Shown: positions 10,375 through 60,698, counted from the stretch's first letter. The stretch is DNA of 64,000 nt from Candidatus Magasanikiibacteriota bacterium (GCA_049287025.1 JBAQFA010000009.1:24802-88801); one strand, 5' to 3'. The notes: generated by a model not told the origin, from the sequence alone. Numbers and translations: made by a program.

Positions 10375-12363
10375 ATGATTACGACATTGCTCGTACTTTT
10401 GCCAGCCTTGGCTGCCATACTTTATGGTGGAATTTTAATTGGCTGGATCAACAAACAGCCGGCCGGTTCAGAAAGAATGCAGGCCATTGCTAAGGCTATC
10501 CAAGAAGGCGCCAAAGCTTATCTCGGCAGACAATACAAGACTATTGCCATGGTGGCCGTAGTAGTATTTGTTTTGCTTTGGATTTTCTTAGGATTCAAAA
10601 CCGGTTTAGGTTTTGTGGTTGGGGCAACTTTTTCGGGAATTGCTGGTTATCTTGGTATGACTATTTCCGTCAAAGCCAATGTAAGGACAGCCGAAGCAGC
10701 CAAAAAAGGTTTTAAAGAAGCTTTGGACGTAGCCGTAAAAGGTGGTTCAATTACCGGCTTGTTAGTCGTGGGTTTGGGTTTGTTTGGAGTAGGAGCATTT
10801 TATTTAATTTTCAAAGATACTAATTCTTTAATTGGTTTAGCTTTTGGTGGTTCTCTAATTTCTATTTTTGCTCGTATTGGTGGCGGTATTTTTACCAAAG
10901 CCGCTGATGTTGGCGCTGACTTGGTCGGTAAAGTAGAAAAAGGTATTCCTGAAGATGATCCTCGCAATCCAGCGGTGATTGCTGATAATGTTGGCGACAA
11001 CGTCGGTGATTGTGCAGGTATGGCTGCTGACTTATTTGAAACTTATGCTGTGACAGCTGTAGCTGCTATGGTGCTTGGTGCCCTTACTTTTAAAGGTAAT
11101 GAAGAAGCAATTATTTTCCCATTAATCTTGGGTGGAATTTCTATTATTGGTTCAATCATCGGTACATTCTTTATTAGATTAGGCAAGACAAAAAATGTCA
11201 TGAATGCGCTTTATAAGGGTTTAGTTGTGTCGGGAGTTTTATCAATGATTGGTTTTTATTTTGCTAGTACAGTTTATAGTAAATATTTAAATTTAACAGT
11301 TAGTCAATTATTCTGGAGCGGTTTTATTGGTTTAGTTTTAACTGGTCTTATGGTTTGGATTACAGAGTATTATACCTCTACCAAATATGGTCCAGTAAAA
11401 AGTATTGCCAAAGCTTCTGAGACTGGTCATGGTACCAATGTGATTGCTGGTTTGGCTGTATCCATGAAAGCGACTGCTTTGCCAGTTCTATTCATTGCGG
11501 CTGCTATGCTTGGAGCTTATAGTTTGGCTGGTCTCTATGGTGTAGCTATTGCGGCTATGGCCATGTTGTCTATGACAGGAATTGTAGTGACAATTGATGC
11601 CTATGGTCCAATTACTGACAATGCTGGTGGTATTGCGGAAATGGCTGAGCTCGGTGATGAAGTGAGAGCAGTCACTGATCCATTAGATGCCGTTGGAAAT
11701 ACTACCAAAGCTGTGACAAAAGGTTATGCGATTGCCTCAGCTGCTCTGGCCGCTCTAGTTTTATTTGCCGATTACACTCACAAATTGGCTGAGAATGGTA
11801 TTTCTACAGTTTTTAGAATTGATGATCCAAAAGTTTTGGTTGGTTTGTTTATTGGTGGCTTACTGCCATATTTATTTGGTTCATTTTTAATGGAATCAGT
11901 TGGCAAGGTGGCGGGTAAAGTAGTAGAAGAAGTTCGTCGCCAGTTCAAAGAAATTGCGGGAATAATGGAAGGCAATGCCAAACCAGATTATGCCAAGTGT
12001 GTGGACATCGTAACCAAAGGAGCAATCGGTCAAATGGTTTTACCAGCTTTGATTCCAATAGTAGCACCGATTTTAGTTGGCCTAATTTTAGGACCAGCCG
12101 CTCTTGGTGGTTTATTGGTAGGTACAATCGTGACTGGTTTGTTTGTCGCAATTTCCATGACAGCGGGTGGTGGTGCTTGGGACAATGCCAAAAAATATAT
12201 TGAAAATGGTAATTACGGTGGCAAAGGATCTTTTGCTCACCAAGCGGCTGTTACAGGTGACACAGTTGGTGATCCATACAAAGATACTGCTGGTCCAGCC
12301 ATTAATCCGATGATTAAGGTGGCGAATATAGTTGCATTGTTGATTGTGGGGTTGTTGAAATAG
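10375..12363 (+). CDS. hppA: Membrane-bound H+/Na+-translocating pyrophosphatase
   Basis: 662 aa and polytopic. The motifs are [39 protein letters not shown] and [18 protein letters not shown]. Confidence 0.95.
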
Positions 12364-12413
12364 ACACGGATTATACGGAATTAAAGGATTATACGGAAAA
12401 TAAGAAAAATTAA

Positions 12414-12447
12414 AACACTCTGCTAAATTGGCAGGGTGTTTTTTTTG
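12414..12447 (+). terminator. Intrinsic terminator after hppA
   Basis: The stem acactctgc/gcagggtgt is followed by a T8 run. Confidence 0.7.
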
Positions 12448-12471
12448 TTTAACACTTTTTAAATCGTAAAC

Positions 12472-12500
12472 TTGACTTATCATATAAAATATAGTATAAA
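12472..12500 (+). promoter_or_regulatory. AT-rich promoter driving GC-rich cassette 1
   Basis: TTGACT (12472-12477), a 17-nt spacer, then TATAAA (12495-12500). ACTTGTTGTCTGTCG follows and resembles the CTTGTTCTGACG leader of the other cassettes. Confidence 0.45.
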
Positions 12501-12616
12501 TGTATGTCCGATAGACTTGTTGTCTGTCGTTTTGGTATATAAGGCAACTTTGCTTTGTTGTTGTGTGTGCTTGAGTGAACAACCATAATCCTTGGATGGG
12601 AGGTGAGACAGGGGAA

Positions 12617-13588
12617 ATGGCAAAGGATCTTTCGGAGAGAAAATTTCGAAGCACCGTGCGGTATGTGCGACGTCTATTGGGGGGTGGGACTGGTATTGTG
12701 ACTGCTCAACAGCTTCAGAAGGCTGGAAAACGAGCTCGCGGTCCTTTCTTTGACCCCAGAGACCATGGTCTGGTTCGTCCGTTCTTGGAGCGTGGAGCCG
12801 AAGAAGGACTCTGGGTGCTTGAGAACGGCGGTGGTCGGGCTGTCGTACCTGATGGTGTGTGGGAACAGTGGGATAGTCGTGGCGAGAGACGGCGTGAGGA
12901 ACGTCAGTCACAAGTTACGGCTCAAGCAGGAACCCGGCCAGCTTCAGTGCTGGCATCACTAGAGGAGGTCTCTATGACCGACGGTACGAAGAAGGGGGTG
13001 GGCGTATCCCCGAAAAATCCTATCTGGGTTTGGCTTCGGGCCAAGAAGGGTAGGTTGGGAGAGCTCATCGAGCTGTTCCAGGGGGTCCATGATGGTGCTC
13101 CGGTTCTCGCCAAGAAGGGTGGGGCTTTGAGTTTCCATTTTGCCCGCCCGCACCTAGTTCGGGGCCTGCAGAAGCTCGGGATGGAGCAGATCGACGATGG
13201 GTCAAAGATCCTGGCCACGGTCTTCTCCTACCTCGCCACGCCTGAGCAGGGGGTATTCGAGCGTGTGGGTTCTGGTGGGTACCCCCGCTACAAGCTCGGG
13301 CCGAAAGGGCAGAAGCTCTTGACCGAGGTCAGGAGCAGGGGCTCTGAGCCCATGCCACCGCCCGTTCCGTCCACGTCACCGACCGCTGCCCCCAGCCCGG
13401 GTGACCCGTTCGCCGAGGAGGAGGCCGCTCTCGTGGCCAAGCTCGAGGCGGTCCGTGCCAAACGCCGGCGCTTCATCGTGGTCGAGGACCTCGTGGTCAA
13501 GGCCATGAAGAAGGCCGGCATCGAGGGGACAGAGCAAGTTGAGTTCCTCAAGGCGCTCGTCAAAAAGCTCGGGGGTTCCTCCGAGTAG
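12617..13588 (+). CDS. GC-rich cassette ORF 1, unknown function (ORFan)
   Basis: This is a long ORF in a compositionally foreign block; the 60-nt line starting at 13321 contains 42 G+C. GGGAGGTGA lies upstream of the ATG at 12617, and the GTG at 12575 offered by the ORF track is unlikely. The protein has a Pro-rich linker and a C-terminal helical region. I recognise no family. Confidence 0.6.
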   Translation: MAKDLSERKFRSTVRYVRRLLGGGTGIVTAQQLQKAGKRARGPFFDPRDHGLVRPFLERGAEEGLWVLENGGGRAVVPDGVWEQWDSRGERRREERQSQVTAQAGTRPASVLASLEEVSMTDGTKKGVGVSPKNPIWVWLRAKKGRLGELIELFQGVHDGAPVLAKKGGALSFHFARPHLVRGLQKLGMEQIDDGSKILATVFSYLATPEQGVFERVGSGGYPRYKLGPKGQKLLTEVRSRGSEPMPPPVPSTSPTAAPSPGDPFAEEEAALVAKLEAVRAKRRRFIVVEDLVVKAMKKAGIEGTEQVEFLKALVKKLGGSSE

Positions 13589-13795
13589 TCAAATCTCTAG
13601 GCAGTCTTGACTGCCTACGACATCGTTCTTTCAACCTGTCCCGTTCGGGACACCAAAGTCAGGGAAGTGAGTATCACTCCACATCGGAGCGTACCTTCCC
13701 TGGCGCTCCATCAAAAGAACATCTCTAGTTAGGTGTTTTTTTGTTTAACATTGATTTTACAGATTTTAAAAAAGATTTTATTTTATAAAAATTAT

Positions 13796-14560
13796 TTATT
13801 TCAAACTGTTCCACAACATCTCCCAAACAAGACGTTGGTTATCAGCATTGGCTTGGTCTTCAATAATGACTAGGATCATACTCTCCCAAGAAACAGTCAT
13901 TACTCGATTGCCATAAATAACAGTGTGACTTTTGAATGATTTACCTTCGGGTAAAAATTTTACTTCACGTAATTCTTCTGTGGCACGTCTAGCTTCTAAA
14001 ATACCGGATTTGGATTTTTCCACAATTATTTTTGCTTTAACCCCTAATGAAATTCGTTCGTTGGTTAATTTTTTATACTCTTCTGGAAAAGTTGTTAATA
14101 GTTTTTCTGATGAACCATATACCAAATTTTCTTTTAGATTTACTTTGTGTCTAATCCTGTCTAGATAAGCATTCCATACATTTTTTCTACCCTCAAAATA
14201 TAATACTTTTGGTTTGTTGGCACCTTTGTTTTGTAAAGCCTCAAGTTCTGGTATTAGATCAGCAAAAAGTTGCTCTTTGTAACGAAGTGAATCCAAAAAT
14301 TTTTCTGGTTCCATGGCCACAAAATATCTTTTTCTGCCTTTGTTAACCACATTCATTAAGCCTTTAAGAATTAATTTTTCTATAATGTCGTATGTAGTTA
14401 CTCTATGTATGCCGGCTTTTTGAGCAATTGTCTGGACTGAAGCATGACCAAGCTCTAAGGTGGCTAAGTAAATTTCGGCCTCTTTGGCATCTAGACCAAA
14501 TTGTTGTAATTGATTAGGTAAAATCATAAAATGTTGTAGGAAAAGTTCTACATTTTTCAT
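13796..14560 (-). CDS. TrmB-family winged-helix transcriptional regulator (paralog 1)
   Basis: The N-terminal FGLDAKEAEIYLATLELGHASVQTIAQKAGIHRVTTYDIIEKLILKGL matches the TrmB wHTH pattern. The gene is low-GC. The start may be the internal Met at 14527. Confidence 0.8.
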   Translation of the reverse strand: MKNVELFLQHFMILPNQLQQFGLDAKEAEIYLATLELGHASVQTIAQKAGIHRVTTYDIIEKLILKGLMNVVNKGRKRYFVAMEPEKFLDSLRYKEQLFADLIPELEALQNKGANKPKVLYFEGRKNVWNAYLDRIRHKVNLKENLVYGSSEKLLTTFPEEYKKLTNERISLGVKAKIIVEKSKSGILEARRATEELREVKFLPEGKSFKSHTVIYGNRVMTVSWESMILVIIEDQANADNQRLVWEMLWNSLK

Positions 14561-14639
14561 TATATCTATTTACAATAAATAAGTCAATCTGCTAATCTAA
14601 TGTAGTATATTATCGACATAATTAATTTAAAATAATACT

Positions 14640-15674
14640 ATGAGAAAAAAATATCTAATTTGGGCAGTTGTGGCAGTGGCCATAATAATGGTTGGCTATT
14701 TAACAATTAGTAGAATACAACAAAATTCAAATCAGTCCGTCAGCTCTAACCAAGAAAAAATACTAGATGTAAAATTAGGTTTAAGTATTCAGCCATCAAA
14801 TGGTTTGTTGTGGGTAGCAGTAGATAAAAATTTTTTTCTAGAAGAAGGTTTGAATGTACAAGTGCAAGAATTTGCCGCTGGAAAATTGGCTTTGCAAGCT
14901 ATGCTTGGTGGATCAGTGGATTTAACTACCCCGGCTGAATTTCCTGTGGTTTTGGCTAGCGTGAATGGAGAAAAACTTTCTATTCTAACCCAAGTCAATG
15001 AAACCAGCGGAGGGTTTCCTATGATTTTTCGCAAAGACAATGAGGAAACATTTAATACTTCTACTTATTTTATTAAAAAAAGAAAAATTGGCACGTCAGT
15101 TGGTGGTGGGCCAGAATATTTTACTCAAGATTTTTTTAATAAGTATCAGATTAAACCCAGCCAATATGAAATTGTCGGAATGAAACCTGAAGATTTACCT
15201 ATTGCTTTGGTAAATGGTAGTATAGATGCTATGGCAATTTTTGAACCCTTTACTCATTTTGCGATTGAACGCGCGGGAGCAGAAAATTTATTTGTTATTT
15301 ATGACGAAGATTTATATTCCGAAACCATTGTTTTAACAGGTAAAACTGATTGGGTCAAGACTCATAATGAAGAAGTGAACAGATTCATTCGGGCTTTAAA
15401 AAAGTCTTATGATTTTATTAAAAGTAATCCTGATGAGGCCATGACTTCAGTAGCACTTCATACCAAATTGGATTTGGCAACTGTAATAAGCATCTGGCCA
15501 ACTTTTACTTATGAACTTGGTTTACAGAAAAAATTAATTGCCTCTATGGAGAATGAAGCTAAGTGGGCTAGTGAAACAGGCAAAACAAAAAATGAGATAA
15601 GTGGCATAGATTTTCAGCAAATTTTATTTCCTGAACCTTTACAAGCATTGCTGCCAGGTTTGGTGAATTTATGA
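14640..15674 (+). CDS. ABC transporter substrate-binding protein (NMT1/NitT/TauT-like)
   Basis: It has an N-terminal signal anchor and type-2 periplasmic-binding-protein length. A cognate permease and ATPase follow. Confidence 0.7.
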   Translation: MRKKYLIWAVVAVAIIMVGYLTISRIQQNSNQSVSSNQEKILDVKLGLSIQPSNGLLWVAVDKNFFLEEGLNVQVQEFAAGKLALQAMLGGSVDLTTPAEFPVVLASVNGEKLSILTQVNETSGGFPMIFRKDNEETFNTSTYFIKKRKIGTSVGGGPEYFTQDFFNKYQIKPSQYEIVGMKPEDLPIALVNGSIDAMAIFEPFTHFAIERAGAENLFVIYDEDLYSETIVLTGKTDWVKTHNEEVNRFIRALKKSYDFIKSNPDEAMTSVALHTKLDLATVISIWPTFTYELGLQKKLIASMENEAKWASETGKTKNEISGIDFQQILFPEPLQALLPGLVNL

Positions 15675-16462
15675 AATTAAAGAAAATATTTTTATACATT
15701 TTACCCACTTTCATTTTTTTACTGTTTTGGGAGTGGGTCTCACGCAAAGGGCCTGTCAATCAGGTCCTTTTTCCTCCACCATCAGAAGTTGTCATTTCTT
15801 GGTTGAATTTAGTAAAAGATAATATTCTTTTACCAGATATTGAAGTAAGTTTGAAGCGTTTATTTTTTGGTTTGGTTATTGGTAGTACAGTTGCCATTAT
15901 TACTGGTTTATTAACTGGCAGAATAAAAAAAATTCATAATATTATCACACCTTTTATTCAAGCCATACGACCTTTGCCAGCCGTGGCCGTTATTCCTTTA
16001 GTAATTGTTTGGCTGGGTATTGGAGACACGGCAAAAATATTCACGATTGCCTTTGGATCATTTTTTCCTATTTGGTTAAATACTCATGTGGGTGCTGAAC
16101 AAATACCAAGGATATTTTTGTGGTCAGCCAGATTGTTAAATCTCTCCCCACTTAAACTATTTACGAAAGTGATTTTTCCAGCGGCGTTGCCCTTTATTTT
16201 AACAGGTGTTCGTACTGGGGCAGCCACAGCTTATGCTATGGTGTTTGTTTCAGAGTTGGCCGGTGCTTCCAGTGGTATTGGCTATAGAGTTGCCGTAGCT
16301 CAATTGGTTTATCGTACTGATCAGATGATGGCTGCTTTAGTTACCTTGGGAATTTTAGGAGCTTTAACTGATTTATTAATTGTTTTTATAAGCAAAAAAT
16401 TAACCCCTTGGATTAAAAATCATGAACATGAGCCAAATTATCATCAAAAATTTATCAGTTAA
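15671..16462 (+). CDS. ABC transporter permease (NitT/TauT family-like)
   Basis: 263 aa with six TM segments. It has a BPD-type inner-membrane component pattern and is start/stop coupled to its neighbours. Confidence 0.8.
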   Translation: MKLKKIFLYILPTFIFLLFWEWVSRKGPVNQVLFPPPSEVVISWLNLVKDNILLPDIEVSLKRLFFGLVIGSTVAIITGLLTGRIKKIHNIITPFIQAIRPLPAVAVIPLVIVWLGIGDTAKIFTIAFGSFFPIWLNTHVGAEQIPRIFLWSARLLNLSPLKLFTKVIFPAALPFILTGVRTGAATAYAMVFVSELAGASSGIGYRVAVAQLVYRTDQMMAALVTLGILGALTDLLIVFISKKLTPWIKNHEHEPNYHQKFIS

Positions 16463-17123
16463 ACGCGGAGAAAATTTTATTTTAAAAAATCTTGATTTGG
16501 CAATTCAAAAGGGTGAATTTGTGGCAATAGTTGGCAAGTCTGGCAGTGGCAAAACTACTTTTCTTCACACTTTGGCTGATTTTTTGCCTTTTTCTGGAGA
16601 TATTATTATCCCCTCTAATTTGGGAATGGTTTTTCAAGAGTATAGTATTTTTCCTTGGTTAACTGTGGAAAAAAATATTTCGCTTGGTTTGGATAAATAT
16701 CATCCTGATAAAAGAAAAGAAATAGTTGAAGAACATCTGGTTTTAACAGAACTGGAACACAAGCGTGATTCCTACTCAGCTGAACTTTCTGGTGGACAAA
16801 TTCAACGAGTAGCCATTGCCCGTTCACTAGCGCCCGATCCCGAGGTGTTATTAATGGATGAGCCATATAGTGCCTTAGATGCTCACACTAGATATAAAAT
16901 GCAAGAATGGCTTTTGGAAGTGTGGCAAAAGAAACAAAAAACCATAGTTTTTGTCACTCACAATATTGAGGAGGCGATATTTTTGGCTGATCGTATATTG
17001 GTTTTGAACCAGGGTAATTTTGTTCATGAATTTATTGTTCCATTTGTTAGGCCCAGGGTAGATGATATGAGATTTACAATGGAATTCAATTTACTAAATC
17101 AAAGGATTAAGTCTTTTTTGTAA
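16422..17123 (+). CDS. ABC transporter ATP-binding protein
   Basis: Walker A is GKSGSGKTT, the signature is LSGGQIQRVAIARSL and Walker B is LLMDEP. Confidence 0.9.
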   Translation: MNMSQIIIKNLSVKRGENFILKNLDLAIQKGEFVAIVGKSGSGKTTFLHTLADFLPFSGDIIIPSNLGMVFQEYSIFPWLTVEKNISLGLDKYHPDKRKEIVEEHLVLTELEHKRDSYSAELSGGQIQRVAIARSLAPDPEVLLMDEPYSALDAHTRYKMQEWLLEVWQKKQKTIVFVTHNIEEAIFLADRILVLNQGNFVHEFIVPFVRPRVDDMRFTMEFNLLNQRIKSFL

Positions 17124-17225
17124 TAAATGTAAAATGACATAAATAAACATTCTTATAAATGGGGTGTTTTTTTGTTTTCAAAAATGTGCTAGAATATAGG
17201 AGATAATTTTTATTAATCATTATAT

Positions 17226-19670
17226 ATGGGAAGACGAGGACGAGGGAGACAATCAAATTTAGACCCGGTTTTATCCCGGGGCATTTTAGCCATTGTAGTC
17301 GCGATTGCCGCCATTATTTTTGGGCTTAGTTTTTTTGGCAAAGCGGGCGCAGTGGGAATCATGCTTGATGAATATGTGTTAAGTTTTTTGTTTGGATCAA
17401 TCCGCTATACTGTACCATTTGTTATGTTGGTGCTTGCTTGGTATTTGGTGCGCGACACAGAATATAATTATCATCCTACTCACGGCATTGGCGCGATTTT
17501 ATTTTTTTTGAGTCTGGCCAGTTTTATGCATATCAAGTTTGAACCAAGTGAAATGTGGACGATGTCCCTGGATGGTTTTGGTGGTGGTATATTTGGTATG
17601 TTTGCTTGGCCACTCAAAATGTATTTGGGTGCGATTGCTGGTAAAGTAATTTTGGTCGGTATGGTGGCTGTTGGTTTCTTTTTAATTTTTAATACTTCGT
17701 TTGCGCATTTTGTTTTGATCAACAAAAAGATTTTTGCCGGCTTGGGCTGGGTTGGTAAATCAATTTTAAAATTATTTGGTTTATTTGTAGAAAAAAATAA
17801 AAAACATTTACAGGTTAACGGTGATTATGATGAAGATGGTGAAGATGTGGATGATTTGGCAGATAATGAAGACGAAGGAAACTCTTCGGCTAACGCTCAG
17901 AGTGAAGAAGAAAATATTGATGAAGATGAAAATACTAAAAAAGTTTTTGCCAAAAAAATTATTGGTTCAACTGATGATAATTCTTCTGATGAAAATAATT
18001 CTTCGGAAGACGCAAAGAGTGAAGAGGATGGTGTAGCAGCTTGGCAGAGAAATGTGGTAATAAAAAATTTACCTAATTATGATCTGTTAAATAGTAAGCG
18101 AAGTAAGCCAACGAGTGGAGACATCAAAGCTAATGCCCAAACTATTCATGATACTTTTCAAGAATTTAATATTGGCGTGGAAATGGGCGAAGTACGCGTG
18201 GGTCCGACCGTCACTCAGTATTCTCTCAAACCAGACAAAGGTATCAAACTAACTCGCATTACAACTTTGTCCAATGATTTATCTTTGGCTCTGGCCGCTC
18301 ATCCGATTAGAATTGAAGCACCAATTCCAGGCAAATCTTTAGTCGGGATTGAAGTGCCCAATTTTAAAGCTGCCATGGTGACACTCAAAGAACTTTTGGA
18401 AAGTAAAGAATTTGTAACTCGCGAACACAACTTAATGATTGCCCTGGGTAAAGATGTTTCAGGTAAAGTTTGGTTTGCGGATTTGCCCCGTATGCCTCAC
18501 CTGTTAGTAGCTGGTGCGACTGGTTCTGGTAAAACAGTATGTATCAATACAATTATCATGAGTTTACTTTATCAAAATACAGCCGAGACATTGCGTTTGA
18601 TCATGGTTGATCCAAAACGGGTAGAGTTAACACCATACAATGGTATTCCTCATTTACTTACCCCAGTCATTACCAATGTCCAAAAAACTGTTAACGCTCT
18701 CAAATGGTGTATTGGAGAAATGGATCGTCGGTTTGAATTATTTTCCAAATCCCATAGCCGTGATATTGGTTCATACAACAGCAAACATCCCAATGAAAAA
18801 ATACCTCATATTGTGTTTGTAATAGATGAACTAGCTGACTTAATGGCCTCCGCTGCGTCCGAAGTGGAAGCCGGGATTATTAGAATTGCCCAGATGGCTC
18901 GGGCAGTTGGAATTCACCTCATTGTCGCAACTCAACGCCCGTCAGTGGACATTATCACTGGTCTTATGAAGGCTAACATTCCAGCTAGAATTGCTTTTTC
19001 GGTAGCGTCTATTATTGATTCACGGACAATTTTGGATTGCCCTGGTGCAGACAAATTACTTGGCCGAGGTGATATGTTATTTTTAACTGCCGAGTTATCC
19101 AAGCCAGTGCGTGTTCAAGGAGCATTTGTTTCAGAACAAGAAGTTCATAATGTTGCGGATTATCTAAAAGGCGATGGTAAGGTAGAATATGATGAATCGA
19201 TTGTAGAAAAACCAACAGCCGGAACCATGAATATGTTTGGTGGTAGTTCTGATGACCAAGATCCTTTGTTTGAAGAATCCAGACAAGCCATTATTCAAGC
19301 TGGTAAAGCGAGTGCTTCATTTTTACAACGTCGTTTAAAAATTGGTTATGCTCGAGCCGCCAGAATTCTAGATGAATTAGAAGCAGCGGGAATTATTGGT
19401 CCAGGTGATGGCGCCAAACCACGAGAGATTTTGACCACCGAAGTTGAGGTGGAAAATAGTGATATGGGTATGGGACAAAAATTTAATGTTTTTGGTGGTA
19501 GTGAAGAAATCGTTGAAGAAACTAATAGTGATGAAGAGGTAGTTGAAGAAGAAAACAATCCAGATGAAGAAATTTTAGAAGATGGTGTTGAAAGTGAAGA
19601 AGAGAATGAAAATGATGAAGACATTGATGAGAACGAGGAAAAAAAGGAAGATGAAGTGGGGCTGTATTAA
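17226..19670 (+). CDS. ftsK: DNA translocase FtsK/SpoIIIE
   Basis: It has N-terminal TM helices and an acidic low-complexity linker. The motor domain carries GATGSGKT and VIDELADLM. A C-terminal gamma wHTH (ASASFLQRRLKIGYARAARILDELE) and an acidic tail follow. Confidence 0.95.
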   Translation: MGRRGRGRQSNLDPVLSRGILAIVVAIAAIIFGLSFFGKAGAVGIMLDEYVLSFLFGSIRYTVPFVMLVLAWYLVRDTEYNYHPTHGIGAILFFLSLASFMHIKFEPSEMWTMSLDGFGGGIFGMFAWPLKMYLGAIAGKVILVGMVAVGFFLIFNTSFAHFVLINKKIFAGLGWVGKSILKLFGLFVEKNKKHLQVNGDYDEDGEDVDDLADNEDEGNSSANAQSEEENIDEDENTKKVFAKKIIGSTDDNSSDENNSSEDAKSEEDGVAAWQRNVVIKNLPNYDLLNSKRSKPTSGDIKANAQTIHDTFQEFNIGVEMGEVRVGPTVTQYSLKPDKGIKLTRITTLSNDLSLALAAHPIRIEAPIPGKSLVGIEVPNFKAAMVTLKELLESKEFVTREHNLMIALGKDVSGKVWFADLPRMPHLLVAGATGSGKTVCINTIIMSLLYQNTAETLRLIMVDPKRVELTPYNGIPHLLTPVITNVQKTVNALKWCIGEMDRRFELFSKSHSRDIGSYNSKHPNEKIPHIVFVIDELADLMASAASEVEAGIIRIAQMARAVGIHLIVATQRPSVDIITGLMKANIPARIAFSVASIIDSRTILDCPGADKLLGRGDMLFLTAELSKPVRVQGAFVSEQEVHNVADYLKGDGKVEYDESIVEKPTAGTMNMFGGSSDDQDPLFEESRQAIIQAGKASASFLQRRLKIGYARAARILDELEAAGIIGPGDGAKPREILTTEVEVENSDMGMGQKFNVFGGSEEIVEETNSDEEVVEEENNPDEEILEDGVESEEENENDEDIDENEEKKEDEVGLY

Positions 19671-23932: not shown

Positions 23933-26299
23933 TTATTTTTCTAAGACGGGGTGTTGGCCAAACTGACCACGTAGAGCCGAGACTATTTGGCCAGTATAAT
24001 CTGGATTTTTCTGAGATTGCTTTCTAAATTTGAGTGATTCTTCAATTACTTTGGTCTTTATTTTCATGGCCTTGGCAGTTTTAATGGTCCACTCGCCTTC
24101 TCCAGAATGAGATACTTTACCACTAATTTTTTCTAAATTAGTACCGTAAGTATGAAAGGCTTCATGGAGCCAACCAACCAGACGGGATTCAATTACACTA
24201 CCCTCATTATATATGTCAGCAATGCGGTGTAGATCTAGTTTATAATCAGACTTTTTTAGAACATTAAATCCCTCGCCAATGGCTTGCATCATGCCATACT
24301 CAATTCCATTGTGAATCATTTTTACAAAGTGGCCAGCACCAGCGCCAGAAAAAAACTGATAACCATTCACTTGAGACATGTCTTTAAAAATTGGTTCACA
24401 ATGTTCAAATAATTTTTTCTCCCCGCCGATCATAATGCAGGCGCCATTTCTCGCTCCACCTGGACCACCCGATACCCCAGCATCGAGAAATTTAATACCC
24501 AGCTTTTTTAATTTATTGGCTCGAACAGTCGTATCTTTAAAATATGAATTACCGCCGTCAATAATGATGTCGCCTTTATCTAATTTTTTTACTATTCCTT
24601 CTTTACCAAACAAAGTCTCATCAATTGGTTTGCCATTGGGAAGCATGAGCCAGATAATGCGTGGGCTAGGTAATTTTTTTATCATGTCTTCTAATGAATA
24701 TACCGCGTTCAAATTTTCTTTGGCCATTTGTCTGGTCACTTCAGCGGTGCGATTATAACCAACTACATACCAACCCTTGTCAATTAATCTTCTGGCAAGA
24801 TTGCCACCCATTTTTCCTAAACCAATAATACCAATGCGTTTATTTAGTTTATGTTTTTCTTCTTCTAGAAAATTTTTCGCAGTTTTCGTAATTTCAAAAG
24901 TATCTGGTTTGTAAGTATGGAGTGGAGTTAAATTATTTTTCCAAGCATTAATAATTGGATCAACCACACGCCACATTTGAGCAATTTCGGCATTTCTCAT
25001 AAACCAAGTTTGATTACCAGCAATAGTGTCATGGAGTAATTTGGCGTATTCTTCTACATAGGGCAATTTGGTTTTATTTTTATGCAACATAAAAACAAAT
25101 TCTCGTTTTTCCAATTGCATATCAAAACCAGGTTTTCTTTGCCAAAATTGAATTTTTATTTCTTGCGTGGGGTGAAGTTTAAAAATTATTTTATTTTGCA
25201 CTGGACCAGCCGGTGGGCAAATGCAGGGTTCTGGGTGGCGGAAAGTGACGACAATTTCTTTTTTCACTTGTCCCATCCGTTTGCCACTTTCAATTGTAAT
25301 GGGTACGCCAGTCCAACGCGGTGAATCAAGTTCGGTCTGCCAACGGAAATATGTTTCCACATTAGAATTTTTATTTACCCCAGTAATATTTTTATAACCA
25401 TCATATTGGGCGCGGAAAGTTTTGGTTTTTATATCTTGCAAGCTAGGTTTAATTAATTGTTTCAAAACTTCTGCCCGAGCATTGCGCACTTCTTTGTCAG
25501 TATAGTTAATTGGATGCTCCATAGTTAAGAGCGCGAGAATAGACAGCAAATGGTTTTGTCCGACATCACGCAAAGCCCCGACACTTTCATAAAACGATCC
25601 TCTGGTTTCTACTCCAATTTCCTCCCACAGTTTCATACTAATTCTTTCAATATGCTTGTTGTTCCAAGCGTTTTCAAATAAGCCATTAGAAAAACGGAAA
25701 TTTAATATTCCCTGAACCATTTCTTTACCAAAATAGTGATCAATTCTATAAATTTGTTCACGTTTAAAAACTGATAAAGTTTTTTCTAATTCTTTGGCAG
25801 AGGCACCATCATCACCAAACGGTTTTTCTACAATCACTCTAGCCCAACCAGTACTGTCATCACAGGGCAGATTTAATTTGGTTTCTTTCAATCCCTTGGC
25901 AATCGGTTTGATCATGGCTGGTGGAACAGCTAAGTAATACAATTTGTTAGCACAAATCCCCCATTGATCCTGAATATTTTGAATGTGGCTTTTTAATTCA
26001 GTATAATCTTGCAATTGGGAAAAATCGCCTTGTTCATAATGAAAGAGTTTTAAAAATTTTTCAATTGGTTGTCGGGTTTTAACAAATTCTTTTTCTTTTA
26101 AAATATTAAAAACATGGGTTCTAAATTCTTCATCACTCATTGCTCGGCGGGCAAATCCTAAGACATCAAAATGAACTGGAAGTTTTTTTTGTTTGTATAA
26201 AAAATATAATGAAGGGACAATTTTTTTTGTCATAAGGTCGCCAGTGGCACCAAAAACAGTAAAAATTGTTGGAACATTATCAAAGTATGGTTGTTTCAT
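23933..26299 (-). CDS. zwf: Fusion protein: glucose-6-phosphate dehydrogenase (N-terminal) + 6-phosphogluconate dehydrogenase-like (C-terminal)
   Basis: The N-terminal ~480 aa carry the GATGDL NADP-binding site and RIDHYFGKE, close to the G6PD signature RIDHYLGKE. The C-terminal ~300 aa start with the Rossmann fold IGIIGLGKMGGNLARRL and carry the 6PGDH-like GGNSYF and HFVKMIHNGIEYG. It is one uninterrupted 788-aa ORF. Confidence 0.85.
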   Translation of the reverse strand: MKQPYFDNVPTIFTVFGATGDLMTKKIVPSLYFLYKQKKLPVHFDVLGFARRAMSDEEFRTHVFNILKEKEFVKTRQPIEKFLKLFHYEQGDFSQLQDYTELKSHIQNIQDQWGICANKLYYLAVPPAMIKPIAKGLKETKLNLPCDDSTGWARVIVEKPFGDDGASAKELEKTLSVFKREQIYRIDHYFGKEMVQGILNFRFSNGLFENAWNNKHIERISMKLWEEIGVETRGSFYESVGALRDVGQNHLLSILALLTMEHPINYTDKEVRNARAEVLKQLIKPSLQDIKTKTFRAQYDGYKNITGVNKNSNVETYFRWQTELDSPRWTGVPITIESGKRMGQVKKEIVVTFRHPEPCICPPAGPVQNKIIFKLHPTQEIKIQFWQRKPGFDMQLEKREFVFMLHKNKTKLPYVEEYAKLLHDTIAGNQTWFMRNAEIAQMWRVVDPIINAWKNNLTPLHTYKPDTFEITKTAKNFLEEEKHKLNKRIGIIGLGKMGGNLARRLIDKGWYVVGYNRTAEVTRQMAKENLNAVYSLEDMIKKLPSPRIIWLMLPNGKPIDETLFGKEGIVKKLDKGDIIIDGGNSYFKDTTVRANKLKKLGIKFLDAGVSGGPGGARNGACIMIGGEKKLFEHCEPIFKDMSQVNGYQFFSGAGAGHFVKMIHNGIEYGMMQAIGEGFNVLKKSDYKLDLHRIADIYNEGSVIESRLVGWLHEAFHTYGTNLEKISGKVSHSGEGEWTIKTAKAMKIKTKVIEESLKFRKQSQKNPDYTGQIVSALRGQFGQHPVLEK

Positions 26300-28373: not shown

Positions 28374-29123
28374 TTATTTTATCTCTGGGCAATGATCCCA
28401 CATAAATTTAAACCAGGTTTTATAGCTAGTGGCCAGTGGACGACTAATATTTACAAAAATGGTAATATCGTCACTAATCTTTGTTATTCCGGCGCCAGTA
28501 AAAGACACAACATGATCACCAAAAATGTCTACCATTGAAGGCGTAGAATATTCTTTAGGTAGGTATTTGTAAGGTTTACCTACGGCTTTTGGTACATGAG
28601 GAGCTTGTTTTAGTACTTCAAAATCAAATAAATGTTTATATTTAATACCTCGACGATCCGCATCAACTAAAAATTTATCCAAAAAGGTATTGAGTCTTGG
28701 GTCGAACCAGGCTCCCTTGGCGCCAATACAATAAACATCTTCTTTAGTAGATAATACATCACGAAGAAAATTTTTAAATCCTTCCAGACCTTTATATATG
28801 TAGGCAGCCTCTAAAACAGGATGTTTTTGGTATTCGTGCATCAAGTGTGGCATTTCTTTTTCTAGCCTAGTACGTTTTTCATCAACCAGTTCCATTAGCT
28901 TGGCTGGTTCCACTGGTTTAAATAAAGTGTCGCCATGCCCAATAACTTGAAACACTAAACCTTTTTCAATTAAGCGATTCATTGAGTCATAAATATTCCG
29001 GCGATGAATTTTACTTTTTTTTGAAATATTAGAAACCGTAGTTTGTTTTTCTTGTAAAAGTGTTTCGTAAATTTTGGCTTCGTTTATTGACAATCCTAGT
29101 TCTGTTAAAATTTGGCTATACAT
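28374..29123 (-). CDS. TrmB-family wHTH transcriptional regulator (paralog 2)
   Basis: The N-terminus is LGLSINEAKIYETLLQEKQTTVSNISKKSKIHRRNIYDSMNRLIEKGLV. The gene is low-GC and divergent from GC-rich cassette 2. Confidence 0.8.
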   Translation of the reverse strand: MYSQILTELGLSINEAKIYETLLQEKQTTVSNISKKSKIHRRNIYDSMNRLIEKGLVFQVIGHGDTLFKPVEPAKLMELVDEKRTRLEKEMPHLMHEYQKHPVLEAAYIYKGLEGFKNFLRDVLSTKEDVYCIGAKGAWFDPRLNTFLDKFLVDADRRGIKYKHLFDFEVLKQAPHVPKAVGKPYKYLPKEYSTPSMVDIFGDHVVSFTGAGITKISDDITIFVNISRPLATSYKTWFKFMWDHCPEIK

Positions 29124-30254: not shown

Positions 30255-31049
30255 TTATTTTTTCTTTTTGGCAAGTTGAGAGAGTGGTACGGCCGTATTC
30301 CAAGCTAGTTCATATAGCGCTTTTAGAATTTTTACCAAAGATGTACTTTCTATCATTACACCAATTTTGTGTGGTTTATGAGTGACGAAGACAATTTTTG
30401 ATTCAAAAATATTAATTTCACCAAAAAAGTCCTCAATTCCTGGTAGTTGATTAGGTTTAAGCCATTTAATATGAGTATAAGTCATTGATCCTTTATAATT
30501 CGTCATCCAAGTTCTAGCTGTAGGTGTATCCAAAGCAATAATACGTTCATGAATTTTACGTTTACTGCGTTCACGATTATAGCCTTCACCCCAAGTTTTG
30601 AATTCCGGCCAACTCCAGCCTTCAAAATCGGCAATAGAAAGAATTTCGGTTTTTGAATCTAAGCTCTCCCAATAAATATTTTTTAAACCCTGGGTACCTT
30701 CTTGATATTTGATAACTGGCTTTTCGGCAAACTTATAAATCGAAAATAATTTTGGTAAAACTTTTTCTACATTTAATAATTTATCTTCCCATTGCTTTTT
30801 TTTGTTTTTAATATGTTGAACCAGACGCCCTGGATTTTCCGAAGTATAAATCATTTTCGATCCTTTGCCAGTCGCGCGATCTACCAAACCATACCAACCT
30901 AACTTTTCCAAAGCATAATAACCAAGCGTTCGGTTGATACCAGCTTTTTTGGTTATCTCGGCTACAGTAGCAGGACCAAGTTCGAGCAAGGCTAAATATA
31001 CTTTGCCTTCGGTTTCATCTAAACCTAATTGACTGATTAAATCTTTCAT
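30255..31049 (-). CDS. TrmB-family wHTH transcriptional regulator (paralog 3)
   Basis: LGLDETEGKVYLALLELGPATVAEITKKAGINRTLGYYALEKLGWYGLV. It is clearly homologous along its full length to the ORFs 31929..32732 and 48975..49763. Confidence 0.85.
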   Translation of the reverse strand: MKDLISQLGLDETEGKVYLALLELGPATVAEITKKAGINRTLGYYALEKLGWYGLVDRATGKGSKMIYTSENPGRLVQHIKNKKKQWEDKLLNVEKVLPKLFSIYKFAEKPVIKYQEGTQGLKNIYWESLDSKTEILSIADFEGWSWPEFKTWGEGYNRERSKRKIHERIIALDTPTARTWMTNYKGSMTYTHIKWLKPNQLPGIEDFFGEINIFESKIVFVTHKPHKIGVMIESTSLVKILKALYELAWNTAVPLSQLAKKKK

Positions 31050-31928: not shown

Positions 31929-32732
31929 TTATTTTTTCTTTTTACTAGTTTTAGCAAGCGGTGTAGCTGTAATCCACGCCAGTTCAAAAATCGCTTTTAA
32001 AATATTAGATAAAGCCGTGCTTTCTATAATTATGCCAATAGGGATTGGTTTCTTGAATAAAGCCATCATTACTTTATTATCATAAATATTAATTTCACCA
32101 CCTAAATCTTTGATAGTTGGTACTTGTTCGGGTTTTATCCAGCGATAATTAATATATTTTTTTGATCCTTGATAATGTTTCATCCAATCTCTTCCTTCGG
32201 GTGTATCTAAAACCAAAACGCGTTCAGAAATTTTTCTTTTACTACGTTCGCGGGTATATTCTTTGCCCCATTTAAAAAGATTAAACTCTGGTGTATACCA
32301 AGCTTGCAAATCCAAGACTGATAAAATTTCTGATTTGGCTTCTAAAGTTTCCCAATAAATATTTTTGGCACCCTCAACACCTTCTTGAAATCTAACGCTG
32401 GGTTTTTCGGCCACGGTATAGAGTAAATAAAAATCTGGCAATTGTGATTCTAATTCTTTTTCTTTTCTTTCCCAAGTATTAATTTTTGATTTTACAAAAT
32501 GTTTTAAATTTTTGGGATCTTTGGCTACAAATTGAATGCGTTTCTTTTGTCCAGAAGAACGATTGACTAGGCCAAACCAACCAAGTTTTTCTAGGGCATG
32601 ATAACAAAGGGTGTGACCAATGCCAGCTTTGCGGGCAATGGCGCTGGCGCCAGAAGGTCCAAGTTGTAAAAGGGCAATATAGACTTTGGCTTCTGTTTCT
32701 TCAAAGCCAATGCTTTTAAGAATTTCTAACAT
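31929..32732 (-). CDS. TrmB-family wHTH transcriptional regulator (paralog 4)
   Basis: IGFEETEAKVYIALLQLGPSGASAIARKAGIGHTLCYHALEKLGWFGLV. The C-terminus LKAIFELAWITATPL...KKKK parallels that of paralog 3. Confidence 0.85.
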   Translation of the reverse strand: MLEILKSIGFEETEAKVYIALLQLGPSGASAIARKAGIGHTLCYHALEKLGWFGLVNRSSGQKKRIQFVAKDPKNLKHFVKSKINTWERKEKELESQLPDFYLLYTVAEKPSVRFQEGVEGAKNIYWETLEAKSEILSVLDLQAWYTPEFNLFKWGKEYTRERSKRKISERVLVLDTPEGRDWMKHYQGSKKYINYRWIKPEQVPTIKDLGGEINIYDNKVMMALFKKPIPIGIIIESTALSNILKAIFELAWITATPLAKTSKKKK

Positions 32733-32904: not shown

Positions 32905-32906
32905 TA

Positions 32907-32946
32907 CTTGTTCTGACGATCGAGGATTGGCCTTGAGAGTTGGACG
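32907..32946 (+). promoter_or_regulatory. Conserved cassette 5' leader (CTTGTTCTGACGATCGAGGAT..CCTTGAGAGTTGGACG)
   Basis: It matches 48718-48679 (minus strand) at 37 of 40 positions and is closely similar to 48294-48258 (minus strand). It contains the hairpin TCGAGG-N5-CCT(C/T)GA. The C-to-T change keeps a G:U pair, and the loops differ. Confidence 0.7.
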
Positions 32947-47476: not shown

Positions 47477-47676
47477 TTTTTGGTTTGATGACTGTTTACG
47501 TACTAATTACGAAACTTACGAATCTACGAAACTACCATTGTTAAATTGCCACATTGTTAAATTGTTAATGATACACACAGAAGAAAGTCTGTTAATGTAA
47601 ATTTTACGGAAATTAAACAAAAAATCCCTTCCTAAATGGTTGGGATTTTTTTGTCTCGTTTGTCGACAAGTCGAGA

Positions 47677-48974: not shown

Positions 48975-49763
48975 ATGGAAAAAAATAATTTAGAAAAATT
49001 AATAGATTTGGGTCTACAAGAAAATGAAGCCAAAATATATTTGGCTTTGTTGGAATTGGGAAAAGGCAATGTGACCGAAATTAGTCGGCGCGCAGGATTG
49101 AACCGGACGACGGGTTATGATATTTTGGAACGTCTTGGTTTACATGGTATGGTGAACCGCGCCAGAGTGGGTAGTAAAAAAATTATTTATGTGGCCGAAC
49201 CGCCATCACATTTGCGTCAGTACTTGGAAGACAAAAAACGCGCCATGGAAAGACGGATGGAAGAATTAAATGATTTGTTGCCAGATTTGCAATCACTTTA
49301 TAAAACTGATATTAAACCAGTTATAAAATTTGCCGAAGGGAAAAGTGAAATGCAAAAATTGTATTTGAATGTTTTGGATGCGAAGAGTGAAGTTTATTCA
49401 ATTCTTAATTTAAAAGGTTATGCCGAAGTTTTTGATGAACTGGGTGCTTATCAATCCAAAGAACGACATAAAAAAGGCATAAAAGAAAAAGTTTTGGCTA
49501 TAAAAAATGATACCGCTCTGTGGTGGTATAATAAAACTTATAAAAATAAAACTGCCAAGGATAAAAAGTTAACCGAATATCGCTGGCTAGAAGATGCGGA
49601 AAAGTATTCTACCGCCGGAGAAGTAAATATTTTTGATGATAAAGTAATTGGTGTATTATCCAAACCAAGTGAAAATGTGGCATTTGAAATTCAATCACAG
49701 ACATTTGCGGATTTTTTGAAATTAGTTTTTGAAATGGCGTGGAAGAATAGTGAACAAAAATAA
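48975..49763 (+). CDS. TrmB-family wHTH transcriptional regulator (paralog 5)
   Basis: LGLQENEAKIYLALLELGKGNVTEISRRAGLNRTTGYDILERLGLHGMV. It is homologous to paralogs 3 and 4 and divergent from cassette 5. Confidence 0.85.
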   Translation: MEKNNLEKLIDLGLQENEAKIYLALLELGKGNVTEISRRAGLNRTTGYDILERLGLHGMVNRARVGSKKIIYVAEPPSHLRQYLEDKKRAMERRMEELNDLLPDLQSLYKTDIKPVIKFAEGKSEMQKLYLNVLDAKSEVYSILNLKGYAEVFDELGAYQSKERHKKGIKEKVLAIKNDTALWWYNKTYKNKTAKDKKLTEYRWLEDAEKYSTAGEVNIFDDKVIGVLSKPSENVAFEIQSQTFADFLKLVFEMAWKNSEQK

Positions 49764-60442: not shown

Positions 60443-60497
60443 ACCTTCGGCCTCCTGGTCCCAAACCAGGCGCTCTAGCCAACTGAGCTACACCCCG
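60424..60497 (-). tRNA. tRNA-Pro (TGG)
   Basis: The reverse complement reads cggggtg-ta-gctcagttggctagagc-g-cctgg-ttTGGga-ccagg-...gaaggttcaagtccttt-caccccg-a. Confidence 0.9.
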
Positions 60498-60541
60498 TTA
60501 AAGTTATAAAGTTGAAAGTTTTAAAGTTCAAAAAAATAACT

Positions 60542-60616
60542 TGGTGCCGAGGGCCAGGATCGAACTGGCGACACGTGGATTTTCAGTCCACTGCTCTACC
60601 ACTGAGCTACCTCGGC
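60542..60616 (-). tRNA. tRNA-Phe (GAA), CCA encoded
   Basis: The reverse complement reads gccgagg-ta-gctcagtggtagagc-a-gtgga-ctGAAaa-tccac-gtgtc-gccagttcgatcctggc-cctcggc-acca. Confidence 0.9.
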
Positions 60617-60624
60617 TTGTTTTG

Positions 60625-60698
60625 TGGACCTGAGGAGATTCGAACTCCTGACCCCCTGCTTGCAAAGCAGGTGCTCTAGCCAGCTGAGCTACAGGCCC
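60625..60698 (-). tRNA. tRNA-Ala (TGC)
   Basis: The reverse complement reads gggcctg-ta-gctcagctggctagagc-a-cctgc-ttTGCaa-gcagg-...caggagttcgaatctcct-caggtcc-a, with G3:U70. Confidence 0.9.

Follow-up and report, generated by a model that had tools for sequence, protein, structure and literature searches.

We analysed a 64,000-nt stretch of DNA (hereafter the window; GCA_049287025.1 JBAQFA010000009.1:24802-88801) from a metagenome-assembled genome (MAG) of Candidatus Magasanikbacteria/Magasanikiibacteriota, a member of the candidate phyla radiation (CPR). The window begins near dnaN and dnaA, and contains, between the gene hppA and a TrmB-family gene (TrmB1), a GC-rich segment with a 323-aa open reading frame (ORF). 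This segment (the island) is absent from the same locus of a sister species. It is probably a recently acquired, self-contained cassette resembling a phage moron, which was inserted into the terminator shared by hppA and TrmB1. Coordinates given below are those of the window, and the features of the island are described on its plus strand.

The insertion was resolved by comparison with a sister Magasanikbacteria species, whose locus (L084-L087) was found via TrmB1 and is present in NCBI, JGI, ENA and Logan assemblies. Its TrmB1 ortholog (P0004) shares 94% aa sequence identity with the product of TrmB1, and the locus is ~86% identical to the window at the nucleotide level. The gene order FtsK-ABC-permease-NMT1-TrmB-hppA-LysM/M23 peptidase is common to both genomes. 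In the sister species TrmB and hppA are convergent and separated by a spacer of only 86 bp, i.e. this is the arrangement that the first-pass annotation of the window had proposed to look for as an empty site. Positions 12400-13773 of the window (1374 bp, the inserted segment) are found in place of 29 bp of the sister sequence, which constitute the stem-loop of a bidirectional terminator. In a blastn comparison, L084 10783-14424 matches window 12399-8755 and L084 2805-10753 matches window 21736-13774; the boundaries are flanked by A/T tracts and are accurate to about ±10 nt. The 20.7-kb sister locus contains no 500-bp window above 45% G+C. Species-representative genomes retrieved via hppA (best identity 77%) lack conserved synteny downstream and provided no empty-site comparison.

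The island is compositionally foreign to its host. The G+C content of the whole 64-kb window is 36.1%, while every 100-nt window within 12600-13700 has 52-74% and the flanks of the block have 23-45%, with the lowest values (23-28%) at 12400-12550 and 13700-13850. The richest 1000-nt window of the 64 kb, which starts at 12654, reaches 60.6% G+C, followed by one of 51.1% at 32921. Both scans thus agree with the first-pass annotation, in which the block at ~12590-13720 was described as the most GC-rich of the window; its count of 42 G+C in the 60-nt line starting at 13321 is also correct, and the line at 13381 contains 45. The ORF has 60.5% GC compared with 34-41% for the neighbouring genes, and its G+C content at third codon positions (GC3) is 0.66 compared with 0.25-0.30 for host genes. 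The encoded protein differs from the host proteins in its content of Arg (9.0 vs 2.7%), Ile (2.2 vs 8.3%) and Asn (0.6 vs 4.4%). Since this is the aa content typical of GC-rich genomes, the foreign character of the protein is old and shows no amelioration.

These data also bear on the opposite polarity, in which an ancestral gene was lost from this locus by deletion in the sister species, and selection on the protein or RNA, not foreign origin, accounts for its high G+C content. The comparison relies on one syntenic outgroup, and the homologs are GC-rich wherever they were found, which could be a constraint intrinsic to the family. However, the sister site is an intact bidirectional terminator with no deletion scar, the GC3 and aa usage are far from those of the host, and the gene is also absent from more distant TrmB1 loci. 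Furthermore, only two relatives (38% identity) were found among 1.84 billion representative proteins, and a search of 5.8 billion clusters returned the protein itself and no other. We consider an ancestral gene at this site very improbable.

The same sequence was found in three further assemblies. An NCBI contig (L001) is 100% identical to the window over 12582-18236, and a Logan contig (L089) over 12567-14818. Another Logan contig (L090), obtained from a separate sequencing run, covers 11778-13902, i.e. it runs from the interior of hppA, through the whole island, into TrmB1, again with 100% identity. Because all three assemblies are identical to the window, and one contig extends across both junctions, a chimeric or contaminant join, which the first-pass annotation had kept in view, is ruled out. 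L089 and L001 both start within 15 nt of each other (12567-12582), in the 5′ untranslated region (UTR) of the island, directly after the GT-rich run GTTGTTGTGTGTGC. Strain variation or a drop in coverage at the GC step may be responsible for these breaks.

The ORF extends from an ATG at 12617 to a stop codon at 13588 (323 aa; GC1/2/3 = 0.68/0.475/0.66). It is a coding sequence, as demonstrated by its codon periodicity, by the improbability of such an open frame, and by the existence of protein homologs at 37-40% identity. The first-pass annotation had reported the same frame, whereas the NCBI annotation includes only its last 204 codons, from an ATG at 12974 preceded by GAGGAGG. The N-terminal part has a periodicity of its own (GC1/2/3 = 0.73/0.52/0.44), and an open frame as long as the 133 codons ahead of 12974 appears in 0.2% of shuffled sequences. 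On these grounds the 323-aa reading is likely, and a 204-aa isoform produced from the internal start is possible. A candidate structured leader RNA at 12536-12975 was rejected, as its folding z-score is only -2.1 and the region shows coding periodicity.

The ORF is followed by a 3′ UTR of ~120 nt, containing three hairpins (13596-13620, 13637-13652 and 13658-13704) and then a terminator hairpin (T2). The three hairpins are present in both the minimum free energy (MFE) and the centroid structures. The MFE of the region 13586-13750 is -57.9 kcal/mol compared with -35.7 ± 3.8 kcal/mol for shuffled sequences (z = -5.8; -5.79 before rounding), and none of the 200 shuffles was as stable. The strongly structured 3′ UTR noted previously is therefore real, and all three of the hairpins named at that time are found in this fold. 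There are only two orthologous 3′ UTRs (cassette 1 of contig L083 and fragment L082, both described below), and the alignment of the island with them is limited to the last hairpin and the terminator. Rfam was searched in two ways, with the whole window at gathering thresholds and with 12380-13800 in E-value mode; apart from tRNAs, the results were limited to sub-threshold noise at the hppA terminator.

In AT-rich genomes, an island of high G+C content often corresponds to a structured RNA. The block might accordingly be mainly a structured non-coding RNA with a by-product ORF, or else a chimera generated by assembly or binning. The pronounced structure of the 3′ UTR, the presence of spurious ORFs on both strands of the block, and the breaks of two assemblies at 12567-12582 would be compatible with such explanations, which we nevertheless regard as barely credible. 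There is no Rfam match, and the coding part folds like shuffled sequences (z = -0.85 for its C-terminal part, and the above-mentioned -2.1). In addition, the codon periodicity, an open frame seen in 0.2% of shuffles and the homologs with a confidently predicted fold argue for a protein-coding gene, while the contig of the separate sequencing run passes through both junctions at 100% identity.

A HMMER search of 1.84 billion representative proteins identified two relatives of the island protein, P0002 and P0003 (37-40% identity), and a word-indexed search of 5.8 billion protein clusters retrieved the island protein itself only. P0002 is encoded by a 778-bp metagenome fragment (L082) of 63% G+C; the bases upstream of its gene stay in frame, which indicates that this is a truncated part of a longer gene. 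P0003 (626 aa), the only full-length homolog, is encoded in a MAG contig of Candidatus Parcubacteria (L083). Residues 116-282 of the island protein align with residues 412-570 of P0003 (37% identity, E = 2e-23). Residues 1-181 of P0003 constitute an extracytoplasmic function (ECF) sigma factor (TIGR02937, 101.9 bits; Pfam Sigma70_r2/r4_2). The remaining 445 aa form a C-terminal extension without a family in Pfam or NCBIfam, and it is there that the domain common with the island protein is located. The island protein has no sigma-domain match in Pfam or NCBIfam. It has no Pfam match even at E ≤ 10 and none in NCBIfam, PHROGs or PADLOC, nothing meaningful was found among PDB sequences, and no relatives were detected in viral contigs or JGI metagenome contigs. 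In the ORF at 12617-13588, GC3 rises from the 5′ to the 3′ end as a polar gradient (0.42 to 0.84); in the P0003 gene (L083 6322-8202) the first and second 300-nt blocks have values of 0.59 and 0.47, and the last block has 0.84.

Structure prediction, which the first-pass annotation had recommended together with a profile search, assigned the conserved core (residues ~129-241 of the 323-aa protein; 13001-13339) to the winged-helix fold. The predicted core is composed of helices, a beta hairpin forming the "wing" and a trailing helix, and all of its top structural matches belong to the winged-helix class, with 6-22% sequence identity. A single-sequence AlphaFold2 model of the island protein (pLDDT 49) was not used. 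The protein may be divided into (i) an N-terminal part of 119 aa, (ii) the predicted winged-helix core, (iii) a proline-rich linker and (iv) a small helical C-terminal domain. The N-terminal 119 aa show no similarity to P0003, to the C-terminal half of the same protein, or to anything in the fetched loci. The designation "ORFan" therefore holds for this part but not for the C-terminal ~200 aa, which have two distant homologs and a predicted fold. According to this prediction, the island protein defines a new and very rare winged-helix family linked to ECF sigma factors.

The island contains, as judged from its sequence, its own promoter and factor-independent terminator. The promoter is of the sigma-70 type (TTGACT-N17-TATAAA, 12472-12500); it was detected by a regular-expression match and can be aligned with the promoter of the homologous L083 cassette. 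Its form matches that of the TrmB1 and hppA promoters of the host (TTGACT-17-TATAAT), and it was therefore correctly described as host-like. Downstream of the promoter there is a leader hairpin, i.e. a palindrome plus T-run (TGTCCGATAGAC-TTGTT-GTCTGTCGTTTTG, 12505-12534), which is terminator-like in our scan and has a folding z-score of -3.85. The hairpin proper spans 12509-12529 and is followed by TTTTGG, and the palindrome within 12472-12540 has the form CGATAGAC..GTCTGTCG. This hairpin is a candidate attenuator or operator. The window contains a single copy of the leader motif TGTCCGAYAG-N-GTCGTTTTG (0 expected); among the loci retrieved up to that search, it is found elsewhere only before the homologous L083 gene. 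Nine matches in viral contigs are all located in unrelated GC-rich coding contexts without a promoter, which corresponds to the level expected by chance.

Two terminators delimit the unit. T1 (AAAACACTCTGC-TAAATT-GGCAGGGTGTTTTTTTTGTTT, 12412-12450), identified in the terminator scan as a 14-pair stem with a T-run, lies inside the insert, at the end of hppA, and cannot be aligned with the sister terminator beyond the A/T tracts. T2 (CAAAAGAACATCT-CTAGTT-AGGTGTTTTTTTG, 13712-13743) is a 13-pair hairpin plus T-run in the RNA fold, in agreement with the host-like terminator annotated at this end, and its layout is that of the L083 cassette terminators. The T2 loop and stem ends contain the 9-mer TCTAGTTAG. 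Terminators of the type AAAACAC...GGTGTTTT are the usual form in the window. Similarity between terminators was also considered as a sign of cassette homology and was dropped, since the one viral match to CAAAANNACATC..GGTGTTTTTTTG is a terminator of the ordinary kind, located in a phage contig that is AT-rich and unrelated.

The P0003 gene of the Parcubacteria contig is part of a comparable structure. It belongs to a three-gene block of 58-61% G+C, surrounded by genes of 36-40% G+C (GC3 0.25-0.35). The genes of this block encode (i) the sigma fusion P0003, (ii) a PNP_UDP_1 enzyme and (iii) a third protein with no family match, and each of them is preceded by an AT-rich region of its own and is equipped with a GC-rich hairpin and a terminator of the form ...ACATCAG-loop-CTGGTGTTTTTTTGT. 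Approximately 70 nt of promoter and leader can be aligned between the island and the P0003 cassette (CTTGAC...TATAGTATAAA...TGTCCGAYAG...GTCGTTTTG), and both leaders fold as a hairpin followed by a U-run. The P0003 cassette has no TrmB neighbour. Mini-ORFs of 7-8 codons with a strong Shine-Dalgarno sequence are located directly after the stop codons of GC-rich cassettes in L083 (8205-8245 and 9368-9400) and L082 (680-715). They encode the peptides MARSPPM*, MAREPPK* and MRARAPPV*, which are conserved at the peptide level with a Pro-Pro motif, and are followed by a GC hairpin and a terminator; the window island has no such mini-ORF.

An 18-nt direct repeat, GTGTTTTTTT(T)GTTTAACA, is present at 12437-12454 and 13733-13750. 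Both copies are within the inserted DNA, and the right one overlaps T2. The exact 15-nt core (12440-12454 and 13736-13750) was identified by a repeat search, and the adjacent GTG was added by eye. The sequence TTTTTTGTTT has 19 sites in the window, and this pair is the only one in which AACA comes next. Cassette 2 of L083 is bracketed in a parallel way by a 19-nt direct repeat (GTGTTTTTTTGTTGTAAAT), which likewise consists of the terminator T-tract and downstream bases.

The repeats raise the possibility of a dedicated cassette system, either site-specific or repeat-mediated, in which units such as the island are excised as circles and integrated via terminator/promoter repeats. This would be consistent with (i) the 18-nt repeat (terminator T-tract plus GTTTAACA) that brackets the island and the similar 19-nt repeat of L083 cassette 2, (ii) the tandem arrays, composed of three cassettes in L083 and three units at 32.9-34.9 kb of the window, and (iii) the conservation of promoter plus stem-loop modules across distant genomes; in phages, PeSL recombination and mini-circles carrying ORFans are documented (PMC2839356). 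On the other hand, there is no recombinase in or beside the island, and the ORFs scanned, which were not all ORFs of the window but comprised the genes directly adjoining the island, include no tyrosine recombinase. No attC-like R/L boxes were identified, no dedicated attC model having been run. Moreover, the repeats are largely generic terminator sequence, the empty site has no repeat, and neither a circular form nor a second integration site was observed. A dedicated system of this kind is, in our view, unlikely.

A single recombinase was detected in the window, namely a large serine recombinase (58805-60439, plus strand) with Resolvase, Recombinase and Zn_ribbon_recom domains, located ~45 kb from the island beside a tRNA-Pro/Phe/Ala cluster (60423-60698). 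Small unannotated ORFs are present upstream of it (55.8-58.7 kb), and this region is possibly an integrated element.

The genes on both sides of the island were already present before the insertion. The left neighbour, hppA (10375-12363, plus strand), encodes an H+-translocating pyrophosphatase (Pfam H_PPase, E = 3e-272) and is syntenic in L084-L087. A tandem 18-nt repeat (GGATTATACGGAA, two copies) is located at 12365-12398, directly after the hppA stop codon; it is also found in the sister species (L084 10780-10815) and is therefore older than the insertion. The right neighbour, TrmB1 (13796-14560, minus strand; Pfam TrmB, E = 2e-13), is divergently paired with the NMT1/ABC transporter operon. 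A convergent TrmB gene does abut the 3′ end of the island, as annotated, but it is not a part of the element, since its ortholog adjoins hppA in the sister species, where there is no island. The comparison thus points to TrmB1 as a pre-existing neighbour of hppA, located outside the inserted DNA.

This distinction is important in view of other GC-rich ORFan units that are present in the window, at 29.4-30.2, 31.25-31.9 and 32.9-34.85 kb (plus strand) and at 47.6-48.75 kb (minus strand). Most of them share (i) a leader, ACTTGTTCTGACGATCGAGGAT..CCTCGAAAGTTGGAC (the GTTCTGACGATCGAGG leader), (ii) a 24-mer, GTAGGCCGNCGCGTKAGCTCGGCA (GTAGGCCGGCGCGTGAGCTCGGCA), in the 3′ UTR and (iii) a divergent gene of the TrmB2/3 type. 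Both the leader and the 24-mer are candidates for RNA motifs or for operator sites. The 24-mer has five copies in the window (31795, 33338, 34178, 34801 and 47677) and none in viral contigs. With up to 2 mismatches, the leader is found only at 32906 and 48707, and in L101, a number within chance at that stringency. A single-cassette version of the family is present in the JGI contig Ga0172370_10012775 (L101 8100-8800), which originates from another metagenome. Many products of this TrmB-linked family are Cys-rich or zinc-ribbon-like, and the three units of the 32.9-34.9 kb array are separated by repeats of ~115 nt. The 47.6-kb array ends with a 38-bp terminator (AAAAAATCCC..GGGATTTTTTGTTTAA, 47615-47652) that is matched at 100% identity by L084 436-473 of the sister species, where its context is non-syntenic; the rest of the two genomes is ~86% identical.

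In the first-pass annotation the island was regarded as a divergent member of this family (that of the 26-mer, the CTTGTTCTGACG leader and the palindrome), and it could then be controlled by, or move with, the TrmB paralog. The units do have a common design, in which an ORF of high G+C content lies between an AT-rich promoter and an AT-rich terminator and the unit ends against a convergent TrmB gene, and the family itself is real, as it is also present in another metagenome (L101). The 9-mer TCTAGTTAG is found at 13724-13732 and has 3 occurrences in the window vs 0.30 expected, in each case directly ahead of a terminator adjoining a TrmB gene. However, the 24-mer is absent from 12400-13773 even with 3 mismatches (the absence of the canonical 26-mer was reported correctly), and the family leader is absent with up to 2 mismatches. 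No divergent TrmB gene is located upstream of the island promoter, where hppA is found instead, TrmB1 being downstream and convergent. The leader string ACTTGTTGTCTGTCG is present at 12515, as stated, but its likeness to the CTTGTTCTGACG leader lacks statistical support: there is no match at ≤2 mismatches, a stringency at which chance matches are expected. Half of the palindrome was correctly located just before the T-run terminator. Of the palindrome TCTAGTTAGTACTAAGTAGA, which precedes the terminator in the 30.2 and 31.9 kb copies, the island has the first 9 nt only, within the loop of the T2 hairpin, and these could be a chance match or a remnant. For two UTR sets of this size (a few hundred nt), one common 9-mer is close to the chance expectation (~0.5 by our estimate).

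The remaining evidence points in the same direction. In the sister species TrmB1 occurs although there is no island, and the TrmB1 of the window shares only 23-27% identity with its paralogs there, including those linked to cassettes, and the promoter, leader and protein of the island are homologous to those of a Parcubacteria cassette that has no TrmB neighbour. With the 9-mer as the only common sequence, the assignment to the family is not upheld, and membership in any form, divergent or otherwise, is decidedly improbable. We retain the weaker statement that the island and these units are cassettes of one general class, rich in G+C and self-expressed.

The 64 kb encode at least five paralogs of the TrmB family (13796-14560, 28374-29123, 30255-31049, 31929-32732 and 48975-49763), and the sister species contains further TrmB genes (L084 1979-2728 and 17391-18137) at positions where synteny with the window breaks. 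TrmB genes appear to mark variable regions in the Magasanikbacteria genomes compared. In contig L102, which encodes a TrmB1 ortholog of 73% identity, a different unit of 51-53% G+C (830-2040) converges on the 3′ end of the TrmB gene. It has its own promoter and terminator and contains an HD-domain gene apparently split in two ORFs (148 and 126 aa). The presence of this other GC-rich unit shows that the 3′ side of TrmB1 is variable in the group, and it may be a recurrent landing site. Elsewhere in the window, a 788-aa ORF (23936-26299, minus strand) joins glucose-6-phosphate dehydrogenase (G6PD_N/C) to 6-phosphogluconate dehydrogenase, the latter represented by its NAD-binding and C-terminal domains, and appears to be a fused zwf-gnd gene.

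The interpretation of the island as an acquired moron-like cassette leads to the following model, in which we infer the function of the product, the direction of transfer and the mechanism of integration. The insert, with the order T1, promoter, leader hairpin, ORF, 3′ UTR hairpins and T2, carries all the sequence elements required for its own transcription. It displaced the original shared terminator and supplies predicted terminators to both convergent neighbours: T1 now ends hppA, and T2 probably also stops the convergent TrmB1 transcript. Entry may have occurred by recombination at terminator A/T tracts, as suggested by the junctions and the bracketing repeats. The source was presumably a GC-rich pool with CPR-type transcription signals, e.g. 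another CPR lineage or its element. On the basis of the predicted fold, the product most likely acts either as a transcription factor that binds DNA or in association with a sigma factor; a partnership with an ECF sigma factor is possible, since the core is fused to such a factor in P0003. The palindromic leader may be the operator of the gene itself (autoregulation) or a transcription attenuator, and the 3′ hairpins most plausibly protect the mRNA from 3′ exonucleases and reinforce termination.

Several points weigh against this interpretation. The polarity of the event depends on composition and a single syntenic outgroup, and loss in the sister species is formally conceivable. The direct repeat is partly generic terminator sequence (the 19 sites of TTTTTTGTTT) and would be of modest significance as a recombination scar. 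The empty site of the sister species does not contain the repeat sequence, and a target-site duplication cannot be shown. The true start of the gene is uncertain, as no homolog covers the N-terminal 119 aa and the NCBI annotation has the 204-aa form only. Finally, the family has only three database members, and the donor was not found in the searches made.

Comparison with known systems places the island closest to phage morons. In phages of the HK97/HK022 type, morons are extra genes found between genes that are adjacent in a relative, with their own promoter and terminator and a deviant G+C content (PMC3594210). The island, located between two genes adjacent in the sister species, has all three of these features, those of expression being predicted from the nucleotide sequence. 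Unlike morons, it resides in a housekeeping context (hppA, ABC transporter, FtsK, RecA, ~10 kb from dnaA) and not in a phage or prophage; there are no phage genes around it, no PHROG match and no relatives in viral contigs. It may also be compared with the PeSL cassettes of T4-like phages, in which promoter plus stem-loop modules flank ORFans and recombination inserts, deletes and replaces genes (PMC2839356). At its left end the island has a module of terminator and promoter, with a stem-loop close to the promoter, and 18-nt repeats are present at both borders; there is no sequence relationship, the genome is cellular, and the repeats are short and partly terminator-generic.

Integron cassettes are likewise single-ORF units, often ORFans, with a structured 3′ element and the ability to form arrays. 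However, there is no IntI or attI nearby (among the ORFs scanned), and the island has its own promoter, which integron cassettes usually do not have. Its 3′ end consists of GC stem-loops and an intrinsic terminator instead of an R″-L″/L′-R′ attC site, and it was inserted in a terminator between two housekeeping genes. With respect to the product, ECF sigma factors with C-terminal extensions exist, e.g. those of the ECF41/42 type. The extension of P0003 carries the domain of the island protein, but the latter has no sigma domain and represents a free-standing version of a part of the extension. The predicted core fold is that of other winged-helix proteins (MarR/PadR/ArsR/TrmB-like proteins, MukF, Cdc6/ORC, TubR), from which the island protein differs in belonging to no sequence family and in having the additional N-terminal 119 aa, the proline-rich linker and the C-terminal helical domain.

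Horizontal gene acquisition and genomic islands are documented in Patescibacteria, with most transfers occurring between Patescibacteria; promoters are not mentioned in that work (PMC12455944). The compositionally atypical island, whose homologs were found only in CPR contigs, fits this picture, and differs in that it is a single-gene unit with an exactly resolved empty site and a regulatory shell conserved at phylum-level distance. It is an instructive but fairly ordinary horizontal gene gain, a chromosomal, CPR-borne variant of the moron type. One acquired gene whose function can only be deduced would by itself be no surprise to a specialist. The interest of this case lies in the gain of a gene by a streamlined CPR genome being resolved to the base pair, and in the acquisition of a whole transcription unit and not of the coding sequence alone.

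A broader interpretation, which we put forward tentatively and consider rather unlikely, is that CPR/Patescibacteria share a pool of autonomous GC-rich single-gene cassettes moving between phylum-level lineages via terminator repeats. In the common shell, a CPR-type promoter and a promoter-proximal stem-loop would precede the gene, and stabiliser hairpins and a terminator of the GGTGTTTTTTTGT type would follow it on the 3′ side; the cassettes would enter intergenic terminators and form tandem arrays. Possible instances are the island at 12.4-13.8 kb, the three-cassette island of L083, the L102 cassette and the 24-mer arrays of the window. If true, this would be a chromosomal counterpart of the moron and PeSL systems, delivering winged-helix or ECF-sigma regulators as well as ORFans. 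GC-rich blocks enclosed by an AT-rich promoter and terminator could then serve as a signature for the cataloguing of such cassettes in MAGs. Should the pattern prove general, it would help to account for the compositionally odd ORFans and the variable TrmB- and sigma-type regulators of CPR genomes, and would imply that regulatory genes ready for expression pass between ultra-small symbiotic bacteria in the form of modular cassettes.

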